From Candidatus Woesearchaeota archaeon (GTDB lineage: Archaea; Nanobdellota; Nanobdellia; Woesearchaeales; UBA10216), in contig JACPCV010000006.1 of NCBI GenBank assembly GCA_016184345.1, positions 128,065 to 192,064 of the forward strand: a stretch of 64,000 nt of DNA, written 5' to 3'. A program made the position numbers and the translations under genes. A model generated the notes under the pieces. That model was not told the origin of the DNA. It did no database searches and saw nothing but the letters and a program-made list of their open reading frames with translations. This document shows, one piece after another, positions 26,586 through 32,471 of the stretch (position 1 is its first letter; every line of letters starts with the position of its first letter).

Positions 26586-26994
26586 CGTAGTTTTTGACAC
26601 GAACATATTCGTTTCCGCCATCTTCTGGCAGAAAGGGAACCCTCACAGGCTCTTTGAATTGGCAATTGACCAAAAGATTAAGGCTTTTACTTCTGTTGAA
26701 ATCCTGGGCGAGCTTCTCCGTGTTCTCAGGAGGGATTTTCCAGGGCAGGGGCAGGAGGAAACCATCCTTGATTACCTCTCCCTCATTTTGAAACGCATAA
26801 AGATTGTTGAAGCAAAGGCCAAGCTTGACGTGGTTAAGAACGATCCTGATGACAACAAGATCCTCGAATGCGCTGTGGCTTGCGGAGCAGATTACATAGT
26901 CACAGGCGACAAGCACCTGCTTGACCTAAAGGAATATGAGCGGATAAAGATAATAACGGCGGCGACACTGGTTGGGATTATGCGGCCCAGCTAA
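26551..26994 (+). CDS. PIN-domain toxin (PIN_3/TIGR00305-like)
   Basis: VVFDTNIFVSAIFWQKGNPHRL..., DPDDNKILECAVACGADYIVTGDKHLL. TTG start overlapping the antitoxin by 35 nt. Confidence 0.75.
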   Translation: MPEYTSSGKALNVVFDTNIFVSAIFWQKGNPHRLFELAIDQKIKAFTSVEILGELLRVLRRDFPGQGQEETILDYLSLILKRIKIVEAKAKLDVVKNDPDDNKILECAVACGADYIVTGDKHLLDLKEYERIKIITAATLVGIMRPS

Positions 26995-27055
26995 GGCGAA
27001 GAGAAATTGCGGTCCGGAAGCCATAATAAAAGTACCCAAAAGAGGAGGAGTCAAG

Positions 27056-28189
27056 TTGTCTAATCAGATTTGTGAATGGAAAGAGCTTCCTAAAAACATG
27101 AATAATAAGCTACATACAATCTGTAGCTATATGGCTATGTTTCCACCTTCACTCCCCCATTATTTTATTCAGAAATACTCTAATGAAGGTGATGTGGTTT
27201 TGGACCCCTACTCGGGAAGGGGTACGACTGTTCTTGAAGCTTGCTTGATGAGTAGGATTGGAATAGGAAACGATAAGAATATTCTTGCACATCTTTTGAC
27301 CAAAGCAAAGAGTGATATTCCTGCGAAAGGCCGTATACTTTCGAGGATAAATCAATTGGAAAAAGATTTCAATCCATCACTAATCTCCCTTAACAGTATA
27401 GACCCCAACGTGAGAATGATTTTCAGTGATACTACCCTCTCGCAGATGGCATTCCTGAAAGACAAATTGAATTGGAGAAGAAGTAATGTTGACTCATTTA
27501 TTGCCGCTATGGTCCTGGGCATTATGCATGGAAATTCCGAAGGTTATCTATCCGTCAGTATGCCGAACACATTCTCAATGGCACCAAATTATGTCAGAAA
27601 GTATATTCACGAGCACAATTTGCAGAGACCTATTCGGGACACATTTGCATTGCTCCGAAGAAAGTTGGAACGCTGCTATCAAAAAAGTTCGGTCAGTGGA
27701 AAAGCTTACAGTCAGGATGCAAGGAAGATAACCAGAATAAAGAATTCCTCTGTAGACCTCATTGTTACTTCCCCACCTTACACAAGGGTCATAAGGTATG
27801 GGCAATTCAACTGGATTAGATTATGGTTCCTTGGCAAGTCAGGCAAGGAAATTGACAAGGATTTGTTTTTCTCGCAGTCAATTCCGAAATACTCGGAGTT
27901 CATGGTTCAATCACTGCAAGAGATGAAAAGGGTGTTGAAACCTGGCGGCAAGGCAGTTCTGATTATAGGTGATGTAAAAGACAGAACAAGTGAAAAAATT
28001 TTCAATCTTGCTCAAACCATTTGGGATGACTGCGCCAAATCTGTAGGTTTCAAATTAATGCAGCCCATAATTGAGGACGCAATTAGAGACGACACCAAAG
28101 TTTCAAAAATCTGGGGAGAAACAAAGGGAAATGCTACAAAAAAAGATAGGATTTTGATTTTAGAAAAAACTGATTCATCTACCTCTTAA
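27056..28189 (+). CDS. DNA amino-methyltransferase (N6-adenine or N4-cytosine), motif I upstream of motif IV
   Basis: YMAMFPPSLPHYFIQKYSNEGDVVLDPYSGRGTTVLEA (motif I region), DLIVTSPPY (motif IV), RVLKPGGKAVLIIGD. About 190 aa lie between motifs I and IV (presumed target-recognition region). TTG at 27056 behind GAGGAGG is preferred (alternative ATG at 27098). Confidence 0.8.
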   Translation: MSNQICEWKELPKNMNNKLHTICSYMAMFPPSLPHYFIQKYSNEGDVVLDPYSGRGTTVLEACLMSRIGIGNDKNILAHLLTKAKSDIPAKGRILSRINQLEKDFNPSLISLNSIDPNVRMIFSDTTLSQMAFLKDKLNWRRSNVDSFIAAMVLGIMHGNSEGYLSVSMPNTFSMAPNYVRKYIHEHNLQRPIRDTFALLRRKLERCYQKSSVSGKAYSQDARKITRIKNSSVDLIVTSPPYTRVIRYGQFNWIRLWFLGKSGKEIDKDLFFSQSIPKYSEFMVQSLQEMKRVLKPGGKAVLIIGDVKDRTSEKIFNLAQTIWDDCAKSVGFKLMQPIIEDAIRDDTKVSKIWGETKGNATKKDRILILEKTDSSTS

Positions 28190-28843
28190 CAAAATTTTTA
28201 ACTCCTTATCGAATCTTTTCTTGAGGGTATTGTGAAATTCAGAGCAAAGTTCCAAATCTTTTAAATCAAACAAAATCTTCCCTCTTTGTTGAATTACTCT
28301 CTCCATATTACTTTCTTCAAGGAACCTTTTTGCTTCTGATAAAGTTTGCTCTATATGTTTTAATCTTTCATTAACAATTTTTGGCGGGCTACCAGCGGCT
28401 ATGCTCCAAAACCATCCCGCATCTCTAAATTGAGTGGGTTTTTCTTTATTCTTAAGCCATTCTTTAAAGATTGGATGGTCTATGATTTTTATTATTGCTT
28501 CTTGCAGAGCTCTCGTAGCTTTTAGCTGTAGTTCTTCACTATGTGGTTTCAATCTTAGAGCGGTGGTAAGTCCAGCTTCACTTATTGTATATGCCCTCTC
28601 GCCAACCTTTTTAAGTAAACCTTTAGCCACGAGACCATCTTTACCATCCAGTTTAGTAAAAACGATATTTGAATCAGGAAATTTACTCTCGTAGCCTCTC
28701 AATCCGAATGCAGAATTATCATCTTCCCAAGCTTTGACTATGACTTCTTCAGCTGTGAATTTCGTAGTTACACTTCCCTCACTTAACGACAATGCAGCTA
28801 TAAGAACTCTTTCATTTAATGTAAAATTCTGACTATCGTTCAT
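28175..28843 (-). CDS. Hypothetical protein (222 aa), N-terminal wHTH-like; last gene of the four-gene operon
   Basis: ATG overlaps the upstream gene end by 11 nt. The 3' end overlaps the convergent MTase 3' end by 15 nt. ...LDGKDGLVAKGLLKKVGERAYTISEAG is wing-like. No catalytic motif seen. Confidence 0.6.
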   Translation of the reverse strand: MNDSQNFTLNERVLIAALSLSEGSVTTKFTAEEVIVKAWEDDNSAFGLRGYESKFPDSNIVFTKLDGKDGLVAKGLLKKVGERAYTISEAGLTTALRLKPHSEELQLKATRALQEAIIKIIDHPIFKEWLKNKEKPTQFRDAGWFWSIAAGSPPKIVNERLKHIEQTLSEAKRFLEESNMERVIQQRGKILFDLKDLELCSEFHNTLKKRFDKELKILLRGR

Positions 28844-31184
28844 TTTCAGTCATACCTCCTGCACTTTTTATCCAAGGTGCTAATTTATCCCACATTTTAG
28901 AAGTTAAATCTACGTAGAACCTCTCGTAATTGGCTTTGTGAGATGACCATAATTCAGGTTTCTCATTATCACCCTTCCTTATATATTCGTGGCTCATCCA
29001 TACTTGAATCATCATTTCTACAAATAACTTTGCATGAAAGAGACGCCAGGCAGTTAAATCAATTTTTCGAAGTTCATAGGCGAAATTAGCGTCTTTGCTT
29101 TGCATATTAAGCCACCAGATATTGTTTTGCACATCAATAACTTCCTGCCATAATGCGGGTTGTTCAGAGTTTCCTTGCCTAATTTCTCCAGTAATAGGGT
29201 CTTTGTCTTTGCCCGTCATCAGGAGCTGTGGGAACCCACTACCGCCACTTTCATTAATAACGCCTTTTATTACTTCGACTTCTGTTGGAATTGTATTCCA
29301 CAAACCGTCATTTATATCCACTCCAGCGTATATGTTCGTTTTGCCAATAACATTCCCAAATATGAACCCTTTTGGAGTTATTTTTACAAGTTCGGAATTA
29401 TCGGAATCATGTCTCCAATTCAAAAGAACGTCAATCGATGCTATTCCCTCGTAATCAATCACTTTCGCGGTTATCTGTTTAGATTGTCCCAAAGGAACTT
29501 GTATTATTCTTGGAATCAAATAAATTTCTTTTATGTTGACAACTTTTACTTCCAGAAGAGGGCTACTTATATTACTGCCTTCAATATATGCGTATGCTGT
29601 GCATTTTCCTTTTGATAAAGCTTCCAAATCACCTTCAGGGGTCACATTCAGAATTTTACAGTCATTACTTTTCCAATGGATGGTGGTTATTACTGGTTTA
29701 TCATTAAAATCTTTAGCAACCGCCTTCACTATTGATACGATGTTTGTTTTGAAACCCGTGGCACATTTTATCTGGTAAGTCGACAGATTTATTCTGTCAA
29801 CAATCTTCCCCCAATCAATTTGGTGCCCTTTTTTTTTCTTTTTACCACCAGCTTCATTTCCAAGAATCGATGACAAATCAATTTGACCTTCTTCAGGCAT
29901 AAATTCGTTTTTTATTTCGTTCAGGAACTTGTTATCCTTGTGAATGTCATCAAGAATATTTTCATCCTGTTCCATCATTCTTGTTTCATTTATTTTCCGC
30001 GCCAACGCTCTGATGTTTTCAGCCAAGAAGTCATCTAAAGCCATCATTAAGTCACCGTCAGTAGGTCTTAATCTTCCAGTGTTTACAAAGTCCGTAAGAG
30101 CATCCAGCTCAGCACTTGCGTAAATGAAATGCGAACCTGGAACAGTCGGAGCGACTTCTGATATATCCTTTTGCCCCACAGTTTCGAATTTCGTTTTATA
30201 GGTTACCTTCCATCTGGGTTTCAATCTTACAAAATTTGACTCCATACTATCTTTTGAAGTAAACAGGACTATCTTCCCTTGATTATATTTTCCGTTTTTT
30301 GTGGTGGAGACCCCTTTATTGTTCTCAGGATTTTTTAAGGAAGCTGGTATTTCATACTCAAATGGACCTTCAAACCCAAGATATGGGGGTATCTGCTCTA
30401 ATTGAAGAGGATTTCCATCAAATAATAATTTTCCATTGTGGATAGCATAGAATTTAATTTGTTGAACTGGCAAAGTTGCCTGTGATTTTTTGAGCACTTT
30501 TTTTATAAAAAAATTAATGTCAGGTTTTTCTTCCCAATTAAGTGGTTCAATACCTTGAACAAGCGTAAATGCTTTTCTATCATTTAACGCCTTTCTTATT
30601 TCAGAAGGTAAGTCACTTAAGCCAAAATCGTAGTCCTTTAACTGTTCAACCAACATATCTTCCCATGAGCTAATCAAGCAATCTTTAGCTTTTGTTGTAT
30701 CTGGTATGTATCCGGGAATGCCTCTTTCAAGCGTTTTTATATCGCCCACAAATCCTTTACAATTTAACTTATTATCTTTTACACCAAAAATGTAAGCAGG
30801 TCCCTTGAAAAGCCTATACATGTAAGATTTCCCACCATTTCCTTGAGTTATCTCATCAAATTTGTCCGAACCTCTTCTTGAAGCATCTGGGTCTTGCCAT
30901 ACGCCCCATCTCTCAACGTCTTCATTGGTTGCACCACCCACATCCAAAATTCCTAATCTCGCTGGGGCATTACCTTCCTTATCCTTGAATAACAGTGCCG
31001 CTACCCTATGTTCAGGTTTTACATTGGCTCTATCTTGTTGATAAGCTGCTCTCACATTTTTCATCCATTCTGGGAATCCATCTTCGTGCTGATTTAACCA
31101 TCTTGTAACAGCTGCCAAAGTTCCTTCCTCGTGAAACTTTATTTGCTTATCCCTTTCAATCTGATTCTTTTGGTTCATTTTCAC
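28833..31184 (-). CDS. Large protein (about 782 aa): N-terminal GHKL-like (Bergerat-fold) ATPase motifs, central region, two Big_2-like Ig domains, Trp-rich helical C-terminus
   Basis: FPEWMKNVRAAY (N-box-like ExxxN), LGILDVGGATNED (DxGxG-like), ITQGNGGKSYMY (GxxGxG-like). IQVPLGQSKQITAKVIDYEG...LLNWRHDSDNSELVKITPKGFIFGNVIGKTNIYAGV (Big_2-like). GTG at 31184 overlaps the upstream stop (ATGTGA); the ATG at 31178 behind GGGAGA is an alternative start. Confidence 0.6.
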   Translation of the reverse strand: MKMNQKNQIERDKQIKFHEEGTLAAVTRWLNQHEDGFPEWMKNVRAAYQQDRANVKPEHRVAALLFKDKEGNAPARLGILDVGGATNEDVERWGVWQDPDASRRGSDKFDEITQGNGGKSYMYRLFKGPAYIFGVKDNKLNCKGFVGDIKTLERGIPGYIPDTTKAKDCLISSWEDMLVEQLKDYDFGLSDLPSEIRKALNDRKAFTLVQGIEPLNWEEKPDINFFIKKVLKKSQATLPVQQIKFYAIHNGKLLFDGNPLQLEQIPPYLGFEGPFEYEIPASLKNPENNKGVSTTKNGKYNQGKIVLFTSKDSMESNFVRLKPRWKVTYKTKFETVGQKDISEVAPTVPGSHFIYASAELDALTDFVNTGRLRPTDGDLMMALDDFLAENIRALARKINETRMMEQDENILDDIHKDNKFLNEIKNEFMPEEGQIDLSSILGNEAGGKKKKKGHQIDWGKIVDRINLSTYQIKCATGFKTNIVSIVKAVAKDFNDKPVITTIHWKSNDCKILNVTPEGDLEALSKGKCTAYAYIEGSNISSPLLEVKVVNIKEIYLIPRIIQVPLGQSKQITAKVIDYEGIASIDVLLNWRHDSDNSELVKITPKGFIFGNVIGKTNIYAGVDINDGLWNTIPTEVEVIKGVINESGGSGFPQLLMTGKDKDPITGEIRQGNSEQPALWQEVIDVQNNIWWLNMQSKDANFAYELRKIDLTAWRLFHAKLFVEMMIQVWMSHEYIRKGDNEKPELWSSHKANYERFYVDLTSKMWDKLAPWIKSAGGMTENER

Positions 31185-32119
31185 ATTCTCCCAATTATGC
31201 TATAATCATTTCTTTCGTTTTTTACTAGCCCCAGCTCCCTTAGCAGAGAGATTTTTCCGGAACTAAATGTGGTTGCAAGGTTGCTGAGCTGTTTCTTAAA
31301 TTCAACAGGATCATTTGTCTTCGAGCTTACTTTTTTCACATAAGCAACAAATTTAGGATTATTCTCGAACCACTTCCACAAATCATCTTTACCATTATTG
31401 CCTTTCTTGATAAAAGAATAAACGTCAGAGAGAAGAGTATATTCCTTGAAACCCTGTCTGTCTATACTTTTGAGGTAATTCAAAAGCCAGATTTTTTCCT
31501 CAGGCGTTAATACTTGATTCTTGTCGAGGTTATCAAAAATATTATTTTTTAATCTTGCAAATTCCAAACCTTGGCTGGTTGGCCTCACCAATATCTTATC
31601 CCAATCTTCATTCCATATGTTCTTTTTTTGAGCTCCCTTTTCAAGATGAACTTCAAAAAGCCCAAGATTACGGAAACCATCAAGAAAATGAGTCACTAAC
31701 CTTCTGATTGAAAAGTTGTCGTCTAAATCCTTTGGAAACCCTTTCAATTTGGATAATTCATATCTTTTTATGATCTTTTTTGACTCACCAATTAGTTTAG
31801 TCAGAGGTACATATTCTACCTTTTGGGTATAAAGAAGATTTGCTGAGATTCGTAATAAAGCCTTTCCAGAAAAGAAATCATTAAACATACCCCACAGCCC
31901 AACAGACCTCGTCAGATCATCTAGAACAATTTGTCCGGAAGGGACTTTAATTTGAGGAGGGATAGTTAAATAGTTCAGCTCTTTAGATACTGATTGTGAA
32001 TTGATTCCGTTTGGACCAAAACCGCAAAGAGGACAACCATCAGAGTTCTTATTAAGGTCAAACTCCGAACCACATTTCCCACACTTTACGCGATTTTCTC
32101 CTGTTGCGAACAAAGGCAT
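31181..32119 (-). CDS. Zinc-ribbon protein (312 aa) with helical/wHTH-like remainder, hypothetical
   Basis: VKCGKCGSEFDLNKNSDGCPLCGF at the N-terminus. C-terminal ...GKISLLRELGLVKNERNDYSII is wHTH-like. AGGTAGGTG SD, 8 nt after the upstream stop. Confidence 0.6.
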   Translation of the reverse strand: MPLFATGENRVKCGKCGSEFDLNKNSDGCPLCGFGPNGINSQSVSKELNYLTIPPQIKVPSGQIVLDDLTRSVGLWGMFNDFFSGKALLRISANLLYTQKVEYVPLTKLIGESKKIIKRYELSKLKGFPKDLDDNFSIRRLVTHFLDGFRNLGLFEVHLEKGAQKKNIWNEDWDKILVRPTSQGLEFARLKNNIFDNLDKNQVLTPEEKIWLLNYLKSIDRQGFKEYTLLSDVYSFIKKGNNGKDDLWKWFENNPKFVAYVKKVSSKTNDPVEFKKQLSNLATTFSSGKISLLRELGLVKNERNDYSIIGRM

Positions 32120-32126
32120 AACACAC

Positions 32127-32339
32127 CTACCTGATTGAAGTTACGGTCATTCTAATTCTGCCGTCCTTTCCTTTTTTGTGGTCATAAATAGCGAGGTCAA
32201 AACTCGGGCTGCCACTTATCGCATTCAAGATAGACTGAGCTAGGCTTAGGCCTTCATCTTTACTAATAACTAAATTCACAGATTTGGCGCCCCTGTAAAC
32301 CTTAGTTAATTTCACAAATCCGTAATATTTCCGTTTCAT
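32127..32339 (-). CDS. Small protein (70 aa), hypothetical; first gene of the operon
   Basis: GAGGGGG SD 8 nt upstream of the ATG. MKRKYYGFVKLTKVYRGAKSVNLVISKDEGLSLAQSILNAI.... No motif recognised. Confidence 0.5.
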   Translation of the reverse strand: MKRKYYGFVKLTKVYRGAKSVNLVISKDEGLSLAQSILNAISGSPSFDLAIYDHKKGKDGRIRMTVTSIR

Positions 32340-32381: not shown

Positions 32382-32471
32382 AGAGAAAAGCTTTAATATA
32401 TAAAGTTTTCGGAATCTTTCCGGAAATGCCGGGAAAAATTACGAAAAGGTTTCCAGCAAGAACTCGGATTT

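Follow-up and report, generated by a model that had tools for sequence, protein, structure and literature searches.

We find that the 64,000-nt stretch of a Candidatus Woesearchaeota archaeon genome analyzed here (GCA_016184345.1, contig JACPCV010000006.1, 128,065–192,064; the window, to which all coordinates refer) encodes a protein, named B in the following, in which a predicted MORC-like ATPase is joined to two immunoglobulin (Ig)-like domains of the Big_2 type. The gene is a single open reading frame (ORF) of 783 codons at 28833–31184 with a GTG start; gene callers start it at an ATG two codons further in, which gives a protein of 781 aa. An initial annotation of the window had singled out this ORF, which is real but lies on the minus strand, so that the strand has been corrected here. 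The reading that we favor, still tentatively, is that B provides the ATPase core of a conflict module of two to four genes, horizontally mobile and so far undescribed, which would be a methylation-linked, ATP-gated DNA clamp used in defense.

GHKL/MORC-type ATPases are known from the neighborhoods of restriction-modification (R-M) systems and from eukaryotic silencing. The B family is invisible to Pfam, NCBIfam and PADLOC, yet its ATP site is fully conserved, its partner (protein C) is fixed, a link to a predicted N4-methylcytosine (m4C) DNA methyltransferase (MTase) recurs, and no nuclease is detectable. If B defends cells, a MORC-like clamp would be able to act as immunity on its own.

The ATPase module of protein B

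The initial annotation had read three Bergerat motif boxes in the N-terminal 130 aa of B, and all five peptide strings that it quoted are found at the residues given for them, those of the ATPase being EWMKNVRAAY (residues 39–48), ILDVGGATNED (79–89) and QGNGGKSYMY (114–123). The superfamily alignment comprises 53 sequences, reaching 20% identity, and identity averages 29% over its columns; only G36, E39, K42, N43, D81, G84, G115, G117, K119, R371 and N693 do not vary in it. Of these 11 residues, eight belong to the three boxes, which together account for about 4% of B, and a ninth, G36, is found three positions ahead of the first box. The three ATPase motifs are far beyond chance.

The AlphaFold2 (AF2) model of B, built from 50 homologs (mean predicted local distance difference test score (pLDDT) 85.7, predicted template modeling score (pTM) 0.75), has an order of secondary-structure elements that fits the Bergerat topology. 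E39 and N43 of the N-box are placed in a predicted helix (36–47), and the consensus of this box in the broad alignment, EWxKNSxDAY, is near the canonical ExxxNSxDA. The G1 box, LDVGG in B and LDFxG in the broad consensus, has a variant form (DxGG/DFxG as against DxGxG) and is found at the end of a strand (76–81) that is followed by a helix (87–93). The G2 box, GNGGK, is at the N-terminus of helix 117–124 after a low-confidence ATP lid (about 100–116; pLDDT is low over the lid region 100–125), and in motif IV the nearly invariant F206 and T207 are on strand 206–212.

Comparison of the model with MORC and Hsp90 structures, as the initial annotation had proposed, supported its assignment. Foldseek returned MORC2 (9cdh) at 1e-8, followed by MORC4, MORC3, SMCHD1, Hsp90 and TRAP1; the matches to the ATPase module have E-values of 1e-8 to 1e-6, a probability of 1.00 and 415–570 aligned columns, and the alignments of about 415 columns cover the GHKL domain and the transducer of the MORC crystal structures. 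MORC2/3/4 and SMCHD1 are the best structural matches of the first ~420 residues of B, with which they share a GHKL domain and a transducer with coiled-coil elements. These proteins are ATP-dependent, dimerizing DNA clamps or compactors without a nuclease, and this is the functional analogy that we propose for B. In contrast to the eukaryotic MORCs and SMCHD1, B has no CW, chromo-like or hinge domain, the sequence identity is about 10–14%, and the gene is part of a prokaryotic operon with a winged-helix partner and an MTase. Within residues 216–431 of B, R371 is the only basic column that is at least 85% conserved and the only invariant basic one; it is a candidate arginine finger.

With B alone as the query, nothing meaningful was found in Pfam, PADLOC, NCBIfam or PHROGs, nor by phmmer against the PDB. 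The profile check suggested in the initial annotation was likewise silent for B alone, with no match to Pfam HATPase_c or HATPase_c_3 at the gathering score and with Big_2 (PF02368) below the reporting threshold, but it succeeded for Big_2 in 31 of 50 close relatives (best 4e-8) and in a distant relative (3.8e-12). HATPase_c_3 gave sub-threshold matches in four distant relatives (13–16 bits against a cut-off of 25, E 0.012–0.1), and these span profile positions 4–107, exactly the stretch from the N-box to the G2 box. Profiles of the B family searched against PDB sequences were matched in the Ig part only and never by a GHKL protein. With hhalign, the N-terminal profile of B aligned to E. coli HtpG with the N, G1 and G2 boxes in register (E 0.016, 2.8% probability) and gave no signal with E. 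coli MutL; single-sequence templates, as used in both cases, are too weak for this comparison, and the collinearity with HtpG is suggestive only. We consider the N-terminus of B to be a GHKL ATPase with an S5-type transducer, that is a module of the MutL/Hsp90/MORC class, in which the Bergerat fold is predicted.

GHKL-S5 ATPases of R-M operons have been described as MORC and paraMORC1–5 (Iyer, Abhiman and Aravind, 2008; PMC2292703). B resembles them in having an N-terminal GHKL domain with intact ATP-binding motifs, an S5 domain with a conserved basic residue and a family-specific C-terminal extension, and also in its sporadic, laterally mobile spread in bacteria and archaea and in its neighborhoods with (mostly cytosine) DNA methylases and Vsr. 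The MORC family is defined by a GhXhhpXXRhl motif in the S5 domain (PMC2292703). As neither a strict nor a relaxed regular expression detected this motif in any of the 53 members of the B superfamily, B is MORC-like in fold and not a MORC sensu stricto. The features described for paraMORCs are a RecB-like nuclease, a TIR domain, an HxH domain, an ExxxH motif in S5 and superfamily II (SF-II) helicase partners (PMC2292703). Unlike paraMORCs, B has two Big_2 domains and a novel C-terminal domain, carries no RecB-like, TIR or HxH extension, and has as its obligate partner a winged-helix protein instead of an SF-II helicase or a nuclease. No Ig-like domains are mentioned for the described MORC/paraMORC families in the literature searched. 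We class the B family as probably new and paraMORC-like, with an architecture and an obligate partner that are new as well; it is set apart from paraMORC1–5 by their descriptions. Its members are ~780-aa “hypothetical proteins” that form 89 clusters in a word-indexed search, with a wider superfamily found by exhaustive search. The initial annotation knew of no account of this domain combination, and the literature searched contained no description of a GHKL plus Big_2 (Ig-like) architecture or of an anti-phage function for it.

Three giant-virus proteins in BFVD, A0A1V0SGC9 (Hokovirus), A0A5K0UA26 (Yasminevirus) and A0A5B8HX62 (ChoanoV1), also align to the B model, over 530–910 columns with E-values of 4e-12 to 1e-6 and a template modeling (TM) score of about 0.3, and are presumably GHKL-class ATPases. 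For the unstudied middle region of SMCHD1, only a predicted beta-sheet is noted in a review (PMC7458401), and a literature search for SMCHD1 with Ig-like domains returned no prior description.

Ig-like domains and partner proteins

Two Big_2 segments had been placed at about residues 505–640 of B in the initial annotation. Two Ig domains indeed exist, but both of the quoted segments (563–575 and 587–622) belong to the second one; the first is too divergent to spot by eye. The B family profile matches the tandem Big_2 domains of a teneurin-like protein in the PDB (9ifo, 2e-14 and 7e-19), and Foldseek with the Ig part of B found LigA (8gyr, 1.6e-12), S-layer proteins and NUP210. The mean pairwise identity of the first Ig domain (Ig-1) is 0.33, against 0.51–0.57 in every other domain of B, and its columns have an entropy of 2.17 bits, compared with about 1.4. 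Ig-1 is the fastest-evolving folded part of the protein, which fits a role in specificity or as a sensor, and equally a specificity for DNA or for a partner. The absence of a signal peptide or transmembrane segment, already noted in the initial annotation, is borne out by hydropathy (maximum Kyte-Doolittle value over 19 residues 1.09; hydrophilic N-terminus). An origin of B as a phage structural protein was considered and rejected: no relatives of B were found on 2.9 M viral contigs, and the BFVD matches cited are to Ig domains only.

The C-terminal domain of B is probably a constitutive dimerization domain, by analogy with MutL, Hsp90 and MORC. Its invariant residues contain no nuclease-type set, N693 being the sole superfamily-invariant residue there.

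The gene for B comes third in a compact minus-strand operon, in which it is preceded by a 70-aa ORF and the gene for protein A and followed by that for protein C. The exact operon sequence was recovered in groundwater metagenomes of two separate studies, and the operon is therefore no assembly artifact. This context goes beyond the initial annotation and adds an obligate winged-helix partner gene, a recurrent predicted m4C MTase and an upstream zinc-ribbon protein.

The AF2 model of C (pLDDT 88) has an N-terminal winged helix with a conserved FTAE...PDSN loop, followed by a helical bundle. The best Foldseek match was the N-domain of MukF (probability 0.66–0.91, E 0.02–0.06, TM score about 0.3), with PadR and forkhead proteins also found; nothing was matched at E ≤0.001 and nothing was nuclease-like. 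The C profile against the PDB found only an IdeR-wing-like piece. All that the most distant relatives still share is E32, the PDSN loop and a small number of Gly and aromatic positions, and the conserved residues contain no nuclease-type set. By hidden Markov model, C adjoins B in 39 loci, usually overlapping it, wherever downstream DNA is present, and the pairing holds in relatives of 27–31% identity (loci L037, L043 and L049), in a short relative without Ig domains (L047) and on an Ensifer plasmid. A possible parallel with the kleisin MukF, a partner of SMC-type clamps (Wadjet/MksF), which is matched weakly, would be a winged helix with a helical bundle encoded beside a predicted DNA-clamp ATPase. 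Unlike in MukF systems, the ATPase is of the GHKL and not the SMC/ABC type, and there are no MukE- or JetD-like genes.

Protein A consists of an N-terminal CxxC...CxxC zinc ribbon (eL37-like), an uncharacterized alpha-rich body and a terminal motif like the wing of a winged helix-turn-helix; its profile against the PDB matched only the eL37-like zinc ribbon. The A family has more than 110 members, mostly in DPANN archaea (Pacearchaeota, Woesearchaeota). Only the archaeal loci and L049 have A together with B; A lies upstream of B in L001, L007 and L049, and is absent from most bacterial loci, where B–C persists. PADLOC gave a weak mREase_II match for A (E 0.0068), and the possibility that A is a methyl-directed restriction enzyme was rejected, the match being weak and occurring in 3 of 30 members over 35 residues. 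Homology of archaeal A with the upstream gene of bacterial loci (“cluster 0”) was rejected as well, with an hhalign probability of 2% and only the C-terminal wing-like motif in common. No nuclease was found in A, B or C by Pfam, PADLOC, NCBIfam or PDB searches, nor in B and C by Foldseek, and no helicase or other effector is recognizable in any of the three.

Many A homologs (P0283, P0291, P0301 and others) are labeled “ribosomal protein L37E” by JGI. The likeness to eL37 is confined to the zinc ribbon at the N-terminus (35 residues, E about 0.05); as the other ~270 residues are unrelated, these labels are misleading. In Pacearchaeota, an A homolog heads a different operon (L050:6001–11680, also L051 and L052), in which the order is A (326 aa), a 66-aa ORF, the 817-aa protein P0386, a 253-aa protein, Vsr and a convergent C5 DNA methylase. 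P0386 has its own series of GHKL-like motifs, DAIQN ... WDAGTTG ... GSFGRGK ... GTRITILDL, and no Pfam match. It was rejected as a B homolog, since neither BLASTP nor hhalign found similarity.

Methyltransferase linkage and competing explanations

The most frequent immediate neighbor of B–C is a DNA MTase of the N6_N4 type. It adjoins B–C in the window and in L001, L005, L007, L037, L043 and L049, that is in 7 of about 40 distinct loci; the loci comprise 38 from species-representative genomes together with metagenome contigs, and linkage was counted within 6–8 kb, with N6_N4-type seeds and a Pfam tally of the two nearest neighbors on each side. The linked MTases are also found in the deepest branches (L037, L043 and L049, 27–31% identity). 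Usually the MTase gene is convergent and overlaps the 3′-end of C: the layout of the window is repeated in L001, L005, L007 and L049, and the convergent, overlapping junction is kept across branches at 31–49% identity. The MTase of the window matches Pfam N6_N4_Mtase at 7e-23 and PADLOC MTase_II at 9e-42, has the motif SPPY, and is matched weakly by PglX-type PADLOC models. All linked MTases, including that of locus L053, which lies 4 kb from the B–C pair of an Ensifer plasmid and has SPPF, carry SPPY or SPPF in motif IV (window, L001, L005, L007, L037, L043, L049 and L053), and they represent two circularly permuted architectures with the motif at about 230–270 or about 36–105. In motif IV, SPPY or SPPF is the signature of N4-cytosine MTases and DPPY that of N6-adenine enzymes. 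From this motif, the MTases linked to B–C are predicted to be m4C enzymes.

Hosts of B are found in Methanomicrobia, Aenigmatarchaeota, Acidobacteriota, Planctomycetota, Actinomycetota, Verrucomicrobiota and Pseudomonadota, with 40–50% identity to the window protein. This spread is sporadic over Archaea and at least five bacterial phyla, and at such identities it is a signature of lateral mobility. Across loci, the neighbors of B–C include PIN/MazE pairs, large serine recombinases, tyrosine integrases, an IS66 transposase, DndB and Vsr. The B gene sits in a conflict island of the R-M and toxin-antitoxin (TA) type, in agreement with the R-M-type conflict link that the initial annotation had named for GHKL/MORC-like ATPases. 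Taken together, the winged-helix partner, the recurrent predicted m4C MTase and the zinc-ribbon protein point to DNA, not protein, being surveyed.

We suggest that such a clamp could work as follows. By analogy with MutL, Hsp90 and MORC, B would be constitutively dimerized via its C-terminal domain, and binding of ATP would bring its GHKL heads together into a ring. The DNA contacts would come from C and, where it is present, from A. The ring would load onto DNA without the cognate m4C mark and there stop replication or expression by clamping or compacting the DNA in an ATP-dependent way, in the manner of eukaryotic MORCs, and the variable Ig-1 would line the clamp and set target or partner specificity. 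As none of the three proteins has a detectable nuclease domain, the execution step would be a non-nucleolytic one, BREX-like or MORC-like.

BREX combines self-marking by a DNA methyltransferase with ATPases, has no dedicated restriction nuclease and blocks invader DNA without cleavage; unlike BREX, the B module has no homology to BREX components, the weak PglX-type matches of the MTase being the only link, and is much smaller, with two to four genes. Compared with an R-M system, the MTase is present beside B–C, but no endonuclease was identified in A, B or C. Tiamat, GHKL-Shedu (VcSduA) and SLFN-pAgo-GHKL share with B a GHKL head presumed to gate or regulate a C-terminal module, and they too are found in defense islands, some of them beside methyltransferases. 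These three, in contrast to B, all have a recognizable nuclease (PD-(D/E)xK/DUF4263, NOV_C, Ago/SLFN). B and C had no matches in PADLOC-DB v2.0.0, which includes Tiamat and Shedu models.

Several points weigh against the methylation-linked clamp. An MTase is present in only about 7 of about 40 loci, and dependence on methylation may be facultative or lineage-specific. The GHKL assignment is drawn from a predicted structure and motifs, with no sequence method reaching significance, and dimerization, DNA binding and clamp formation are all inferred. The match of C to MukF is weak (E 0.02–0.06). Finally, A may hide a nuclease, in view of the weak mREase_II match in 3 of 30 members.

A more specific and rather unlikely version of the clamp is that B–C is a nuclease-free immune system akin to MORC/SMCHD1 silencing, in which an ATP-gated GHKL ring, guided by winged-helix partners and by a hypervariable Ig-like domain for specificity, entraps and inactivates DNA that lacks m4C as a self-mark. 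If true, B–C would be what corresponds in function, among prokaryotes, to epigenetic silencing of the MORC type, and possibly its forerunner. Ig-like domains, which are normally extracellular, would gain an intracellular role in specificity, and this would be the first intracellular Big_2 domain to serve as the specificity module of a DNA clamp.

Alternatively, B could be an ATP switch whose intracellular Ig domains recognize and bind a protein of an invader, such as a structural protein of a phage, leading to closure of the GHKL heads and a response through C, which could give a transcriptional or abortive-infection output. This is the model of the initial annotation, and we consider it unlikely, although the fast evolution of Ig-1 is what one would expect of a sensor in an arms race, and a preprint on Tiamat describes, as a concept, Hsp90-like defense proteins with rapidly evolving C-terminal sensor domains. 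Most loci, moreover, have no adjacent MTase, which means that self/non-self discrimination by methylation cannot be universal. On the other hand, the recurring partners are of a nucleic-acid type (winged helix, zinc ribbon, DNA MTase) and no domain of a toxic effector was detected. Conservation of the second Big_2 domain and of the C-terminal domain is as high as that of the ATPase, and the variability of Ig-1 could reflect relaxed constraint on a spacer.

Equally unlikely in our view is an R-M system with a cryptic nuclease, where A, C or the C-terminal domain of B would be an unrecognized endonuclease, the m4C MTase would protect the host, and B would loop or translocate DNA between recognition and cleavage sites, as proposed for paraMORCs. 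That is the published model for prokaryotic MORC/paraMORC operons (PMC2292703), and it would agree with the weak, partly recurrent mREase_II match in A, with the acidic residues E32 and D57 (in the PDSN loop) that C keeps across distant relatives, and with the finding of A-type proteins next to another GHKL-motif protein beside Vsr and a C5 MTase. However, neither the profile searches of A, B and C nor Foldseek for B and C revealed a nuclease fold or motif, the predicted fold of C is a winged helix and not PD-(D/E)xK, and in the C-terminal domain of B a single Asn is the only superfamily-invariant residue. Furthermore, B–C persists in most bacterial loci in the absence of A.

We regard it as quite improbable that B–C has no part in defense and instead organizes or maintains the DNA of mobile elements or islands, for example through MORC/SMCHD1-like compaction or silencing of their own DNA, partition or stability, with the MTases as unrelated cargo. 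B–C is often found beside integrases and serine recombinases, and also on a conjugative plasmid, C weakly resembles the kleisin MukF, and most loci have no MTase nearby. Yet the retention of the convergent, overlapping MTase–C junction at 31–49% identity, and the same predicted m4C chemistry in two MTase architectures, would be hard to explain as chance cargo, and TA, DndB and Vsr neighbors are typical of defense islands.

That B is a surface or secreted Ig-domain adhesin with coincidental GHKL-like motifs, as might be thought from the typical occurrence of Big_2 in surface and phage proteins and from the BFVD and PDB matches of the Ig part to adhesins, S-layer proteins and phage decoration proteins, is effectively refuted by the lack of a signal peptide or transmembrane segment, the superfamily invariance of the ATP-binding motif residues, a confident MORC-like fold over more than half of the protein and the operon shared with a winged-helix protein.

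Locus layout and variants of the B–C pair

The coordinates of the operon, of the domains of B and of the convergent MTase gene are collected in Table 1.

Table 1. Features of the operon and its convergent neighbor, in window coordinates.
Feature	Position	Strand	Basis or remarks
TATA-like box CTTTATATATTAAAG, candidate archaeal promoter	32391..32405	-	~55 nt upstream of the first ORF of the operon; inferred from reading the sequence only
70-aa leading ORF of the operon	32127..32339	-	Preceded by a GAGGGGG Shine-Dalgarno-like site
Protein A, 312 aa, zinc-ribbon accessory component	31181..32119	-	Stop overlaps or abuts the start of B
B residues 1–215, GHKL (Bergerat) ATPase domain	30540..31184	-	N-box E39xxxN43, G1 D81-V-G-G84, G2 G115-N-G-G-K119, motif IV T207
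B residues 216–375, S5-fold-like transducer with invariant R371 (candidate arginine finger)	30060..30539	-	Foldseek alignments to MORC2/3/4; conservation
B residues 376–432, coiled-coil-like arm of two long helices (378–402, 408–428)	29889..30059	-	AF2 model
B residues 433–458, disordered Gly/Lys-rich linker GNEAGGKKKKKG	29811..29888	-	pLDDT <50; highest entropy of all segments
B residues 459–548, first Ig-like (Big_2-type) domain, hypervariable	29541..29810	-	DSSP of the model; conservation
B residues 549–642, second Big_2 domain	29259..29540	-	As conserved as the ATPase
B residues 643–783 and stop, conserved C-terminal alpha/beta and long-helix domain	28833..29258	-	GFPxLLxTGxDxDP...NIWWLN; N693 invariant
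Protein C, 222 aa, obligate partner of B	28175..28843	-	Start overlaps the stop of B by 11 nt
Convergent beta-class N6_N4 DNA methyltransferase, motif IV SPPY	26972..28189, probable start ATG at 27098	+	3′-end overlaps C by 15 nt

A Pfam search found HEPN/MNT and PIN modules flanking the operon in the window. The 70-aa leading ORF has no Pfam match and no homologs across 50 loci, and it was rejected as a conserved component on the latter ground.

In L047 (2139–6146), a B relative of ~600 aa, P0190, consists of the GHKL, S5 and coiled-coil part only and has no Ig domains; its C-terminus gives a weak HEPN_LA2681 match (E 0.027). A C-type gene (C match 2e-11) is found directly upstream of P0190, in swapped order, with a 435-aa protein of unknown type downstream and a serine recombinase nearby. 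This locus suggests that the C-terminal modules of this ATPase family get swapped.

In loci from metagenome-assembled genomes (L013, L017, L024, L025, L029, L030, L034 and L035), B is split into two or three ORFs, which may be pseudogenes or may reflect indels of long-read assembly; the two parts in L030 are ~1.4 kb apart, which could be an insertion. A PilZ (plus SPOR) gene lies 160–290 bp upstream of B on the same strand in L003, L011, L012, L029 and L034, from Acidobacteriota and related genomes, and this may be shared synteny of related genomes and not a functional link.

The distant B–C pair of L053 is carried by a conjugative plasmid of a cultured isolate of Ensifer adhaerens (NZ_CP118613.1, 54211–62548) and is preceded by a 75-aa ORF; both genes are named “hypothetical protein” in RefSeq (plasmid pCTYH.Ch1_3; WP_275028150.1 and WP_127664459.1). 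The presence of a B–C copy on a plasmid of a cultured strain makes the module directly testable. About 1–5 kb upstream, on both strands, are the genes for the SPPF DNA methyltransferase, a 410-aa hypothetical protein and a 583-aa AAA-family ATPase, which could be a second defense module or additional components.

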